64,000 nt of DNA from Thermoanaerobaculia bacterium (GCA_022071945.1 JAJVIN010000029.1:390-64389); one strand, 5' to 3'; shown: positions 33,034 through 48,169, counted from the first letter of the stretch. The notes: generated by a model from the sequence alone, not told the origin. Numbers and translations: made by a program.

Positions 33034-33528
33034 TCACCCGATCTCGGCGAGCACCTCGTTCAACATCACGCGCTGCCCGGGTTTCACCTTCAAGTCCCCG
33101 AACTTCCCCGCCTTCGGCGAGCCGATCGGGTTCTCCATTTTCATCGCCTCGAGAATGAACAGGATCTGCCCCGTCTCGACGGGAGTGCCCGGCTCCGCCA
33201 GGATCCGCGTGATCGTTCCCGGGATCGGAGCCCTCACCCGGCCATCCTGGCTCGCGGGCCGGACGACGCCGGTTTCCAGGTCACGAACCTCGAGCCTGTG
33301 AAGCCCCGTCGACGCGCGAAGCCAGTGGAGGTTCGTGTCCACCACCACCTCGTGCGGCCGTCCGTCGATCAGCATCCACTCGAGAGAACCCAGGTTCCCC
33401 GCCTCGGGGACGCTCACAGCCACCTGCTCTCCATTCACGAGGACTTGCCACTCGGTGCCCGCCCGCTGTCTCAGGTCGATCTCGACCTCGAAGGAGCGCC
33501 CGTCAATCACCACGCCAATCTTCGACAT
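33034..33528 (-). CDS. biotin carboxyl carrier protein (biotinyl domain, EAMKMEN)
   Basis: 164 aa. C-terminal biotinyl-lysine motif ILEAMKMENPI. Confidence 0.8.
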   Translation of the reverse strand: MSKIGVVIDGRSFEVEIDLRQRAGTEWQVLVNGEQVAVSVPEAGNLGSLEWMLIDGRPHEVVVDTNLHWLRASTGLHRLEVRDLETGVVRPASQDGRVRAPIPGTITRILAEPGTPVETGQILFILEAMKMENPIGSPKAGKFGDLKVKPGQRVMLNEVLAEIG

Positions 33529-33542
33529 CTCGCTCTCCTTCT

Positions 33543-35027
33543 CTAGAGGCCCGGCAGCCGCCGGGCATCCCGGTGCCAGCCGCCCAGGAAGCGCTCCGTC
33601 ACGGCGGGTTTGAACAAGAGATTCCGCGAGGCGTACGCAAACGCGGCCGCCACGGCCAGGTCCTTCAGGTGCTCCTCATCTCCGATCGGCTCGAGGAGCG
33701 CCGGACCGAAGAACGTCGAGTCGTACTTCCCTTCCTGAAAGGCCGGGTCGTTCATGATCCTGAGGAACAGCGGCAGGTTCGTCGCCGGCCCGATCACGGT
33801 GAACTCCTCGAGCGCGCGGCTGATCCGTCGCATGCTCTCCATGCGGTCGTGGCCCCACGCCGTGACCTTCGCGATGTACGGGTCGTACTCTTCCGGGATC
33901 GTGCACCCCTCGAAGAGATAGGTGTCGACCCTCAGGTTCGGTCCTCCGGGGACCCTGAGCCTCTCGACTTTTCCCGGGGTCGGCAGGAAGTTCCGCCAGG
34001 GGTCCTCCGCGCGGATCCCCACGATCATCGCGTGTCCGCGAAGCCGGATGTCCTCTTGCCGGTAATGGACCTTCTCCTTTCCGGCCAGACGGAACTGAGC
34101 CCCGACGATTCCGATCCGGGTCACCATCTCGCTGACGGGGTGCTCGCGCTGGATCCTCGGCTTGACCTCTGTAAAGAAGAAGTCGCCATTCTCGTCGGCC
34201 ACGAACTCGATCGAGGCCACGTTGCGAATCCGGAAGAGTCGCGCCAGTTCGACGGCCGCCCGCAGGAGTTTGGCCCTCTGATCGGGATTCAGGAACGGCG
34301 ACGGGGACTCCTCGAGGAGCTTCTGGTTGCCGTGCTGGACCGAGCCTTCCCGCTCCCCGAGGTGAACGATGTTCCCGTCACTGTCGCCGATCACGATCAC
34401 GGCCAGGTGGTGGGCCCGCTCGACTGACTTCTCGAGGTAGACGCGCTTGTTCCCGTAGACGATCTGTGCCTCGGTCTGTGCCGCCTCGACGGCCGCGGTC
34501 AGCTGTTTCGGCGACTTCACGGGCCGCTCGCCGCGCCCGCGGCCGCCGCTGCACGACTTGATCGTCAGCGGGTACCCCATCTTCTCCGCATCGGCTTCCA
34601 AGAGGGCGCGGTCTCCCTCGCCATACGACTGCGCCGAGTGCGTCACGACCGGGAATCCCGCCCGCCGCGCCCAGTCGAGGGCCTTGATCTTGTCCTGATG
34701 GGCGAAGATGACCTCGCTCGACGGACCGACGAACGTGATTCCCGCCTCTTCGCAGGCCCTCACGAACGCTCCGTTCTCGGCGAGGAATCCATAGCCCGGA
34801 TGAACGCCGTCGCACCCCCGCGACTTGGCGATCTCGAGGACGAGATCTTGATCGAAGTAGCTCTTCGGCGAGTTCAGAGGCACGCACTCGGTGGCGATCC
34901 GGGTGTGCAGCGCGCCGCGGTCCGCCGGTTCGAACAGGGCGACGGATTGGATCCCGAGGTCTCTGCACGCGCGCACGACGCGCACCGCTATCTCACCCCG
35001 GTTGGCGACGAGGACTTTCTTCAGCAT
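33543..35027 (-). CDS. accC: biotin carboxylase subunit of an acyl-CoA carboxylase
   Basis: Starts MLKKVLVANRGEIAVR at 35027 with GGAAGGGAG RBS. The ORF-track start at 35057 adds 10 non-conserved residues. ATP-grasp core. Confidence 0.85.
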   Translation of the reverse strand: MLKKVLVANRGEIAVRVVRACRDLGIQSVALFEPADRGALHTRIATECVPLNSPKSYFDQDLVLEIAKSRGCDGVHPGYGFLAENGAFVRACEEAGITFVGPSSEVIFAHQDKIKALDWARRAGFPVVTHSAQSYGEGDRALLEADAEKMGYPLTIKSCSGGRGRGERPVKSPKQLTAAVEAAQTEAQIVYGNKRVYLEKSVERAHHLAVIVIGDSDGNIVHLGEREGSVQHGNQKLLEESPSPFLNPDQRAKLLRAAVELARLFRIRNVASIEFVADENGDFFFTEVKPRIQREHPVSEMVTRIGIVGAQFRLAGKEKVHYRQEDIRLRGHAMIVGIRAEDPWRNFLPTPGKVERLRVPGGPNLRVDTYLFEGCTIPEEYDPYIAKVTAWGHDRMESMRRISRALEEFTVIGPATNLPLFLRIMNDPAFQEGKYDSTFFGPALLEPIGDEEHLKDLAVAAAFAYASRNLLFKPAVTERFLGGWHRDARRLPGL

Positions 35028-35053
35028 CTTCGGCTCCCTTCCTCGCTCCTCCC

Positions 35054-46400: not shown

Positions 46401-46485
46401 GCCAGAAGGCGGGGGCGTTGAGCGCGTCCGGAAGGATGGCGCCGAGACCCACGATGGCGACGGCGCGTTGGGATCGATCTGTCAT
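37417..46485 (-). CDS. PfaA-like iterative type I polyketide/PUFA-type synthase: KS - AT - 4x ACP - KR - DH
   Basis: Start [15 protein letters not shown] at 46485 with GGAGA RBS (ORF track starts 20 codons earlier). KS active site [23 protein letters not shown], four near-identical ACP domains ([17 protein letters not shown]), KR Rossmann fold ([12 protein letters not shown]), C-terminal PKS-DH hotdog ([10 protein letters not shown]). Confidence 0.9.
40030..41470 (-). repeat. Four tandem ACP-domain coding repeats (period ~380-435 nt) with very high nucleotide identity
   Basis: Near-identical stretches at ~40035, 40470, 40866 and 41243 (gtcgtagacgaa.t.cacgacgtgccgca.ggtcgggaagtc.cgcagcttcaggttgtc...). 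Confidence 0.85.
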
Positions 46486-46552
46486 GAGCCATGTCTCCGG
46501 CCCGGCGGGGCCGGCCGGAGAGCCGGACGGCCCCGGGGCGAGCACCCGCGTC

Positions 46553-48169
46553 TCACTCGGCGGGGAAAACCTCGTTCAATTGGCGGGCGATCTGATCCAT
46601 CTCCTCGATCATCCCGGCCTGGGCGGCGACAGCGCCCGCTAGATTCAGCGTCGTGGCGAAGTTCGAGTCGGTCTGTCCGGCGGCCACCGCCCACTTCAGT
46701 CCGTCCGAGGCGACCTTCATGAACGCCTCGCGCGCGTGGACGCGCGCCATCTTCTGAAGGAGCTCGGCGGAAAAGCCCAGGACGCCGCTCGGCTTGGTGT
46801 GGGCTCTCTCGGCGAAGATCGCCGCGGTCTCGGCCCAGGCGATGAGCTCGCCCAGGCGGAAGAGGATGTGCTGGTTGCGCGTCAACCGGTCGAGACGGCA
46901 GCGCTCGAGAAGCGCTCCGAGCGACCGGAACGTGGCCGCGGGGATCTTGCCCCAGGCTTCCTTCTCGAGCCGGGCCGCCCAGTCGAGGTAGTACCCGCCC
47001 CGCGTCTTGAGGTGGAGCTGCCAGCGGTCGCGCGCCATCGTCCACTCCATGATCTCGGAGGTTCCCTCGTAGATCGTGGTGATCCTGACGTCCCGCTTGT
47101 ACTTCTCGACCATGTACTCGCGGGTGTAGCCGTAGCCCCCGAGAGCCTGGATGGCATCCTCCGATGCCTTGTTCCCCGACTCGGTCGCGAAGTACTTGGC
47201 GACGGCGCCCTCGGTCGCCAGGTCGTCCTCGCCGGAATCGAGACGGTCGGCCGTCCACTCGATATAGGCCCGCGCGGCCTCGAGACGGATGGCGTTCGGG
47301 GCGATCAGCTTGTGGGTGTAGCCCTGTTTCTGGGAGAGAGGAGCGCCCGCGGCGATTCGTTGCTGCGAGTACTTGATCGCACGTTTCAGCGCGCCCCAGC
47401 CCGCGCCGAGGCCGAACGCGGCCACCATGAGGCGCGTGTAGCCGAACACCGCTTGAGCCTGAGCGAGACCCTTCCCTTCCACGCCCCCGACGAGCCGGTC
47501 CGCGCCCACCTCGACGTTCTCGAGGAAGAGGGCCGTGGTGTTGGAGGCGCGGATGCCGTGCTTGTCCTCCGGCTTGCCCGGGGTGAAACCCTCGAGACCC
47601 TTCTCCACGATGAACCAGGAAGGACCGCCGGGAGCGTTCGCCAGCACCGTGTAGAGGTCCGCGACACCGCCGTTGCTGATCCACTGCTTGCGGCCGGTGA
47701 TCCGGTACCCGGTGATCTGGCCATCCTTCTCGATCCGCTCGGCGACGGTGGTGAGGGCTGCCAGGTCCGAGCCGGCCTGCGGCTCGGTTGCTCCGTAGGC
47801 CATCAGGAGGCCCTCGTCCGCGAGCTTCGTCATCCAGAACTTCTTTTGCTCGGGGGTCGCTCCCACCAGAATCGGATCCGCCCCCAGACAGGTCGCGAGA
47901 ACCCCCGTCGCGATGCCGAGGTCGATCTCGGCCATCACCGTCGAAACACGGTAAATGTCATAGGCCCCCGCTCCGACGCCTCCGCAGTCCTCGGGGACGA
48001 AAATGAGGTGGAGTCCGATCGACGGGTCGTAGAGATCCTTCAAGACCTTCATCGGGAAGACGTCCTCGTGGTCGATCTTGAGGAGGACGTCCGGCGTCAG
48101 GTTCCTTTCGGCGTAGTCATTCAACGTCGACAGGAACATGTCGAGCGTCTCACTATCCAGTCTCGGCAT
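46553..48169 (-). CDS. acyl-CoA dehydrogenase family protein
   Basis: 538 aa. ACAD N, middle and C domains ([24 protein letters not shown]). Has a GGAAG RBS. First gene of the minus-strand PKS operon. Confidence 0.85.

Follow-up and report, generated by a model that had tools for sequence, protein, structure and literature searches.

The subject of this study is a group of six genes in a 64,000-nt stretch of DNA (in the following, the window) from a metagenome-assembled genome (MAG) of a Thermoanaerobaculia bacterium (Acidobacteriota). The genes follow each other on the minus strand between positions 33034 and 48169 of the window, and encode an acyl-CoA dehydrogenase (ACAD), a multidomain megasynthase, an Sfp-type phosphopantetheinyl transferase (PPTase) and the three parts of an acyl-CoA carboxylase: carboxyltransferase (CT), biotin carboxylase (BC) and biotin carboxyl carrier protein (BCCP). 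Their positions and those of the megasynthase domains are collected in Table 1. A first-pass annotation of the same DNA had described a compact, self-contained operon with gaps of 14-67 nt, in which a PfaA-like synthase with multiple acyl carrier proteins (ACPs) is accompanied by its own PPTase. Pfam and NCBIfam assignments agree with this description, as do the gene starts, which were picked by the Shine-Dalgarno sequence and by agreement with orthologue lengths. With these ribosome binding site (RBS) supported starts the gaps between the six genes are 67, 24, 14, 26 and 14 nt. The GC content at third codon positions is high (0.77-0.88), and identical proteins are also found in GCA_023151375.1 and on one further contig.

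We were not able to find promoter-like sites in a scan of 32.5-52 kb, and the number of terminator-like sites in this region was not above chance (15, compared with 10.2 +/- 3.6 in shuffled sequences); inside the operon there was likewise no terminator signal above chance. Directly downstream of the BCCP stop codon, at 32863-33034 on the minus strand, a GC-rich CCCCTTCTCCCGCAAGCGCGGGAGAAGGGG is followed by CCCCTCTCCCTGCGGGAGAAGGGAGAGGGG. This stretch folds into one or two strong hairpins without a T-run and may be the end of the operon or a repeat element.

Relatives were sought with a pattern scan for the second ketosynthase (KS) of the megasynthase, KS2, using one genome per species, and at least 585 of them were confirmed. 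Unless stated otherwise, the comparative counts given below refer to the best 80 of these (loci L006-L085). For genes upstream, the informative subset consists of 68 loci with enough upstream DNA, and for genes downstream of 56 loci with at least 5 kb beyond the synthase. The arrangement of the operon is conserved beyond chance, since the ACAD-synthase pair is present in 68 of 68 informative loci and the full six-gene order in 22.

Table 1. Genes of the operon (window positions), domains of the megasynthase, and the Terriglobales version of the locus (positions within the named loci)
Feature	Position	Strand	Evidence
BCCP, 164 aa	33034..33528	-	Pfam Biotin_lipoyl; NCBIfam BCCP-type matches
Biotin carboxylase, 494 aa from ATG 35027	33543..35027	-	Pfam Biotin_carb_N, CPSase_L_D2, Biotin_carb_C; NCBIfam AccC-type; RBS-supported start
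Carboxyltransferase, PccB class, 515 aa	35054..36601	-	Pfam Carboxyl_trans, 622 bits
Sfp-type PPTase, 258 aa	36616..37392	-	Pfam ACPS, 49 bits (cutoff 25)
Type R megasynthase, 3022 aa from ATG 46485	37417..46485	-	Pfam/NCBIfam domains; motifs invariant in 41-42 orthologues
PKS-type double-hotdog dehydratase	37426..38238	-	Pfam PKS_DH_N, PS-DH; HxxxGxxxxP
Ketoreductase	38476..39195	-	Pfam KR, adh_short; catalytic motif FSS...DYSxxN, invariant
Four tandem ACPs	40021..41460	-	Four PP-binding stretches (Pfam) and four motifs
KS2	41911..43488	-	Pfam ketoacyl-synt, Ketoacyl-synt_C, ACP_syn_III; Cys NAACAS, His SHETFT, His GFTGH
Acyltransferase	43861..44703	-	Pfam Acyl_transf_1; active site GHSLGE and HAFH
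KS1	45076..46467	-	Pfam ketoacyl-synt, Ketoacyl-synt_C, KAsynt_C_assoc; Cys DAACAS, His HGTST, His SNIGH
ACAD, VLCAD architecture, 538 aa	46553..48169	-	Pfam ACAD N, M and C domains
Terriglobales version (L060-L084, L087)	e.g. L069:1248-4221, L066:4170-5156, L064:23-1210, L067:15876-21506

The megasynthase and its family

Segment-wise Pfam scans give the domain order KS1-AT-KS2-ACPx4-KR-DH for the megasynthase, where AT stands for acyltransferase, KR for ketoreductase and DH for dehydratase. The order KS-AT-ACPx4-KR-DH that had been proposed before is incomplete, as it leaves out KS2. The catalytic residues of the domains are strongly conserved: the Cys/His/His of KS1 and the Ser/Tyr/Asn of the KR are invariant in 41-42 orthologues, the GHSLGEY and VSHAFH motifs of the AT in 42, and the catalytic His of the DH (residue 2787 of the open reading frame, ORF) together with LPGVM in 41. 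HAFH is the malonyl-CoA specificity motif of AT domains.

KS2 occupies the ORF residues ~1020-1545 (roughly 520 aa) between the AT and the ACPs. The domain is divergent, but all of 14 sequences from several phyla keep its Cys/His/His triad; the hallmark of a chain length factor (CLF), that is, the loss of the KS active-site Cys, is not found. The nearest solved or curated relatives in PDB and NCBIfam are true KSs of the FabF type, which match over the C-terminal two-thirds only, and among solved proteins FabF and act KS-alpha come closest, with no CLFs. Judged by its catalytic residues and these sequence matches, KS2 is a catalytically intact second ketosynthase and not a CLF. The N-terminal ~230 residues of KS2 fit no KS profile, and an AF2 model built from the 14-sequence alignment has a mean pLDDT of 61.7, which is too low for a fold search.

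This type of locus has been catalogued before. Shulse and Allen (2011, PLoS One 6:e20146, PMC3098273) defined the Type R secondary lipid synthases as a single pfaA homologue with the order KS-MAT-CLF-ACP(3-6)-KR and a PPTase gene behind it; they described it, with an uncharacterised product, from Roseiflexus, Ca. Koribacter, Ca. Solibacter and Elusimicrobium. In Koribacter the pfaA and pfaE homologues are separated by an acetyl-CoA carboxylase (ACC) gene, and the Type R sequences form a separate KS clade (PMC3098273). The locus in the window has KS1, AT, KS2, four ACPs and KR, with a DH in addition, and an Sfp-type PPTase 24 nt past the stop codon of the synthase. It shares with Type R the order of the synthase, the downstream PPTase, the ACC genes of some members, and the occurrence in Chloroflexota and Acidobacteriota. 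Furthermore, KS2 is 73-74% identical to that of a Roseiflexus sp. locus (L034) and ~60% identical to those of Terriglobales/Korobacteraceae loci of the same architecture (L085 is from Korobacteraceae), and by these identities the locus is of one lineage with the founding Type R members. The locus is thus a complete member of Type R, a group known from bioinformatics and biochemically uncharacterised, and no incomplete pfa locus. The novelty that the first-pass annotation implied for the arrangement can consequently not be upheld.

On the other hand, the family has features that the Type R paper does not hold. There, the middle domain is called a chain length factor, whereas the domain in the window keeps the full Cys-His-His triad, and there is no mention of an ACAD, a module of electron transfer flavoprotein (ETF), a C-terminal DH or threonine carriers. 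Our literature search found no later characterisation of Type R, of KS-AT-KS architectures or of an ACAD associated with a polyketide synthase (PKS). Four features of the family appear to be unreported: a VLCAD-like ACAD as obligate partner, an ETF/quinone module that is specific to one lineage, a second KS that is intact, and threonine in the carriers. Homologues of KS2 with 55-84% identity occur in Chloroflexota, Acidobacteriota, Actinomycetota, Gemmatimonadota, Myxococcota and others. One further hit, L086 (Nostocoides australiense HG764815.1, 10001-11804), is a lone 601-aa KS2 fragment near a DDE transposase with no ACAD or synthase around it, and is probably a decayed Type R remnant.

We also asked whether the operon could be part of an ordinary synthase for polyunsaturated fatty acids (PUFA; pfa) or heterocyst glycolipids (hgl), the remaining genes of which (pfaB/C/D or hglC/D) lie elsewhere in the genome. 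The best NCBIfam model for the megasynthase is indeed PfaA (TIGR02813), and the tandem ACPs and a PfaE/HetI-like PPTase fit such a system; like PfaABCDE of Shewanella and Moritella, the window combines a KS-MAT-tandem ACP-KR-DH subunit with a dedicated Sfp-type PPTase and, by this likeness, would extend iteratively with malonyl-CoA. However, the PfaA score of 973.3 bits is just under the cutoff of 1010.1, the KS2 insertion is absent from both PfaA and HglE, and Type R is a KS clade of its own. Compared with PfaABCDE, the window lacks PfaB (AT), PfaC (KS-CLF-FabA-type DH2) and PfaD (the FMN-dependent enoyl reductase, ER), its A subunit holds the extra KS2, an ACAD stands where the ER would be, and the ACP motif is DT and not DS. 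The lack of pfaB/C/D nearby had been noted from the start and extends to the whole 64 kb: tblastn, and Pfam on the flanking ORFs, gave no PfaB/C/D-like protein (no KS-CLF, no FabA-type DH) or NMO-type ER, no other KS, AT, KR or DH, and no WS/DGAT. The 80 related loci likewise show no second KS or AT in the 10 kb on either side. Taken together, we regard an ordinary pfa or hgl system as very improbable.

Carrier domains and carboxylase

The four ACPs of the window all read EADLG(I/V)DTVKQAE, with the threonine codons at 41368-41370, 40987-40989, 40591-40593 and 40159-40161. In an alignment to solved ACPs this threonine falls exactly on the phosphopantetheine serine of DS(L/I); the canonical hallmark of a carrier, the Ser of (D/H)S(L/I) at the start of helix II, is missing from 4 of 4 window ACPs. 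The same holds for the family: Thr is found at this position in 195 of 195 ACP domains of the loci, across phyla, and in 58 of 58 ACPs from database fragments. No other column has a Ser in even 30% of the 195 domains, and 36 ACP domains, among them ACP1 of the window, are devoid of any Ser. If the carriers are functional, the prosthetic group must therefore sit on Thr.

The PPTase has both motifs of the Sfp type, GxDxE (GADLE) and WSAKEAxLKA (here WSAKEAVLKA), which together with its N-terminus are conserved in 27 orthologues, and its length falls in the range of about 230-260 aa. It is divergent, reaching 36 bits with the HetI model (cutoff 370), and it is found in the flank of 39 of the 56 loci. 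The S36T variant of E. coli ACP is not known to be modified by AcpS, and the divergent enzyme encoded beside the carriers may therefore be adapted to Thr. A literature search gave no report of phosphopantetheine on Thr or of an all-Thr ACP family.

The CT, a BC with an ATP-grasp domain and a BCCP with a biotinyl-Lys domain are all present, as in three-subunit short-chain acyl-CoA carboxylases. The best PDB matches of the CT are PccB of S. tokodaii (1x0u, 617 bits), 7w5u ("acetyl-CoA carboxylase beta-chain"), PccB and 12S, while those to methylcrotonyl-CoA carboxylase (MCC), geranyl-CoA carboxylase (GCC) and the AccD4 type are much weaker. Carboxylases of the PccB class, such as that of Sulfolobus tokodaii, also have separate CT, BC and BCCP, and acetyl- or propionyl-CoA would be the expected substrate; the difference from the archaeal and actinobacterial members of the class is that the carboxylase in the window is part of a lipid-synthase operon, in which it comes right after the PPTase. 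A methylcrotonyl-, geranyl- or long-chain acyl-CoA carboxylase, which would serve leucine catabolism or provide an alkylmalonyl extender, was rejected, since the CT is far closer to PccB/ACC and the AT is of the malonyl type.

A carboxylase adjoins the synthase in 44 of the 56 loci, and it comes in two non-orthologous types. The three-subunit type occurs in 26 loci, mostly from Chloroflexota, for which the arrangement in our Thermoanaerobaculia MAG is typical. The single-chain type (18 Terriglobales loci) is a eukaryote-like protein of 1876 aa with the order BC-BCCP-ACC_central-CT, and it is also found downstream of the synthase in the actinobacterial Kibdelosporangium and in one further locus. 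That two non-orthologous ACC types have been recruited to one position speaks strongly for a functional link, the supply of malonyl-CoA. A carboxylase dedicated to this supply is supported by the gene neighbourhoods and agrees with the class of the CT and with the malonyl-type AT, of which the HAFH motif is invariant; the earlier suggestion that the carboxylase provides the extender unit has thus gained in weight.

There could be another explanation, which we consider unlikely: the CT, BC and BCCP may be the general acetyl/propionyl-CoA carboxylase of the organism that merely adjoins the synthase. The CT does belong to the common PccB class, no carboxylase is found within 5-6.6 kb in 12 of the 56 loci, one of which (L028) is also from a Thermoanaerobaculia MAG, and the genome is seen through a 64-kb window only, so that a second ACC elsewhere would be outside view. 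Against this explanation, only 14 nt separate the PPTase and CT genes of an operon in which no terminator stands out, the order PPTase-CT-BC-BCCP is kept in 22 loci, 26 of the 56 loci have CT and BC behind the synthase, and the single-chain ACC found in the same place in Terriglobales and Actinobacteria amounts to an independent recruitment of the same activity.

The subunits differ in conservation: compared with the Chloroflexota loci among L006-L058, the CT of the window is 73-82% identical, the BC only 43-53% and the BCCP 34-52%. The neighbours of the carboxylase-less loci hold no common accessory genes; in one of them, from Chloroflexia, a CDP-alcohol phosphatidyltransferase and an LPG-synthase-TM-like gene lie downstream.

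The acyl-CoA dehydrogenase and a possible pathway

In all informative loci the ACAD gene lies directly upstream of the synthase, with a median gap of about 50 nt, and an actinobacterial locus has it as well. The proteins are 538-545 aa long and 70-88% identical over the full length across phyla. They consist of a core (residues 1-385) that is similar to Bcd and to ACADs for short and medium chains and carries the catalytic Glu within an invariant YEGTSEI, and of a conserved helical C-terminal extension of 150 aa with invariant motifs. The best full-length Foldseek matches of the AF2 model (pLDDT 86.5) are 3owa, 2z1q and human VLCAD and ACAD9 (TMq about 0.8; for 3owa, 2z1q and VLCAD, 0.66-0.82 over 565-589 columns), and the predicted architecture, a core with the catalytic Glu plus a helical C-terminal domain, is accordingly that of VLCAD. 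Among the NCBIfam models the best match is the reductive acryloyl-CoA reductase AcrC, far below the cutoff.

EtfB, EtfA and a membrane Fe-S oxidoreductase are encoded directly upstream of the ACAD in 18-21 loci. The Terriglobales loci have the order WS/DGAT, membrane Fe-S/CCG oxidoreductase (EtfD-like), EtfB, EtfA, ACAD, synthase, single-chain ACC and PPTase. Their membrane oxidoreductase has 714 aa, 4-5 transmembrane helices, two [4Fe-4S] motifs and CCG domains, and their EtfB matches the non-bifurcating M. methylotrophus ETF best and then CarD, while their EtfA has its best match in C. difficile EtfA, with similar scores throughout. Three Chloroflexota loci (L013, L014, L027) have an extra, distant ACAD paralogue (28-31% identity) at ~1300-2400 and upstream, and EtfAB matches also lie upstream of the cluster ACAD in them.

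We were not able to find an ER domain or ER gene that is conserved in any related locus. Since the KR and DH have no ER nearby, and since the ACAD is as closely linked and as conserved as the synthase itself, the most economical reading is that the ACAD carries out the enoyl reduction; on the sequence data, it most likely supplies this missing step. The idea that the ACAD acts as an alternative to the ER, or as a desaturase, had been raised at the outset. It remains the leading one and is plausible, being strengthened by the ACAD as the sole universal partner and by the dedicated EtfAB and membrane oxidoreductase of the Terriglobales. There are precedents in Bcd/EtfAB (5ol2), CarCDE (6fah) and AcrABC, in which a flavoenzyme of the ACAD fold reduces an enoyl thioester with electrons from EtfAB, and the family ACAD and the Terriglobales EtfAB match the structures and models of these complexes. 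However, the known complexes belong to fermentation and use free CoA esters of short chain length, whereas the ACAD in the window has a VLCAD-type C-terminal domain and would be coupled to a megasynthase; moreover, the electron partner in the known complexes is ferredoxin or NADH, while the one encoded in Type R loci, where there is one, is the membrane Fe-S/CCG oxidoreductase.

The domains and genes are tool results, and it is from them that we infer every catalytic activity and every step of the following mechanism. CT, BC and BCCP would make malonyl-CoA from acetyl-CoA for the synthase, as suggested by the CT class, the AT motif and synteny. The PPTase would activate the four tandem carriers, apparently on Thr and not on Ser, and the presumably malonyl-specific AT would load them. 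KS1 and KS2 could then elongate the chain iteratively, probably sharing the work by chain length, and KR followed by DH would yield a trans-2-enoyl intermediate. The obligate ACAD, run as an enoyl-thioester reductase in the manner of Bcd, CarC and AcrC, would fill the only missing step at the beta-carbon. The electrons would come from an ETF, which appears to be dedicated and quinone-linked in Terriglobales and is presumably a housekeeping one in the organism of the window. The product expected from this scheme is a long, largely reduced acyl chain, and the WS/DGAT of the Terriglobales suggests that it may end in a neutral ester lipid. In summary, Type R would be an iterative type I system, similar to fatty acid synthases and PKSs, that works without PfaB/C/D and uses the ACAD as enoyl reductase, a proposal to which we give an even chance.

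Several points weigh against this proposal. ACADs are normally oxidative, and the classical oxidative path to quinone runs through an ETF and a membrane Fe-S oxidoreductase; an oxidative role would account for this module equally well. By its nearest solved relatives the Terriglobales ETF is similarly close to the bifurcating (reductive) and to the non-bifurcating type, and tblastn detected no ETF in the 64-kb window. No thioesterase is present and no release enzyme was identified, twelve loci have no carboxylase close to the synthase, and the searched literature holds no biochemical data for any member of the family. Finally, we know of no Thr shown to carry phosphopantetheine, and the activation of the carriers is thus predicted only.

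Maybe, then, the ACAD works as a desaturase or tailoring enzyme, either in its usual oxidative direction or on acyl-CoA after its release, while the enoyl group stays unreduced or is reduced by a housekeeping ER, so that the product would be an unsaturated, polyene or hydroxy lipid. The canonical catalytic Glu and the MCAD/SCAD-like core would agree with this, and so would the Terriglobales layout, in which ACAD, EtfAB and the membrane Fe-S/CCG protein are arranged as in oxidative chains from ACAD to quinone, and the presence of the non-bifurcating M. methylotrophus ETF among the nearest solved relatives. A KR and DH without an ER is, moreover, the domain set of polyene-forming iterative PKSs. 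On the other hand, the ACAD would meet no saturated alpha,beta bond in the growing chain if there were no ER at all, it is rare for a tailoring enzyme to be 100% syntenic and conserved like the core synthase, and the VLCAD-like architecture suggests the binding of long saturated chains. We see in the oxidative role a possible but less probable explanation than enoyl reduction.

Surrounding genes and implications

The gene upstream of the operon encodes a fused major facilitator superfamily (MFS)/spermidine synthase with TPR repeats (NF037959, 87.7 bits, cutoff 40), which bears out the fused MFS/aminopropyltransferase named in the first-pass annotation. Contigs of the same species (L001-L005) are the only ones in which it adjoins the operon; it does so in 0 of the 80 other loci. 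Since it is not conserved, it stands outside the system, and the suggested conjugate of the lipid with a polyamine is left unsupported; we therefore rejected the idea of a polyamine lipid.

The remaining genes of the window include a DUF3336 and patatin-like lipase of 709 aa at 23888-26017 (+), with genes for an alpha/beta hydrolase and for a TetR regulator beside it at 26073-27568 (-). These lipase and hydrolase genes are lipid-related and 7-9 kb away from the operon, and they are not conserved in the related loci. A PSCyt2/PSD1 (DUF1549/DUF1553) protein at 1181-3175 (-) and a NorB-like nitric-oxide reductase with a fused cytochrome c domain at 15395-17749 (+) have no relation to the operon. 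Three ORFs are without a Pfam match, at 19695-24485 (+, 1596 aa), 51653-53722 (+, 689 aa) and 53971-55497 (-, 508 aa). The latter two are called as genes in the public MAG, and the coding statistics of the first are so weak that it may not be a real gene.

Type R systems were catalogued in 2011 and are present in hundreds of species of Acidobacteriota and Chloroflexota, with a product that is still to be assigned. What was an orphan locus is now testable, with a minimal gene set of ACAD, synthase and PPTase, with or without the ACC, and for the missing enoyl reduction there is a named candidate with a defined set of electron-transfer partners. It is tempting to combine the two most unusual features and to suggest that the carriers are phosphopantetheinylated on Thr by a co-evolved PPTase and that the enoyl reduction is performed by an ETF-fed, VLCAD-like ACAD. 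We hold this combination only tentatively and think it rather doubtful that both parts are right. If it were true, the whole family, which is widespread in Acidobacteriota, Chloroflexota and Actinomycetota and has at least 585 confirmed relatives, would represent a mechanistically distinct kind of fatty-acid/polyketide synthase. Carriers with Thr would be insulated from the other PPTases of the cell, and the reduction would draw electrons from the (mena)quinone pool via ETF instead of using an NAD(P)H-dependent ER. Should Thr be shown to carry phosphopantetheine, the textbook rule of a supposedly universal Ser would have to be revised, and the carrier and its PPTase would offer an orthogonal ACP/PPTase pair for engineering. 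Acidobacteriota and Chloroflexota dominate soils, sediments and activated sludge, and the product, on the combined reading, would be an abundant lipid of bacteria in soil and sludge that has yet to be assigned. The Type R product could also serve as a biomarker lipid of interest to organic geochemists.

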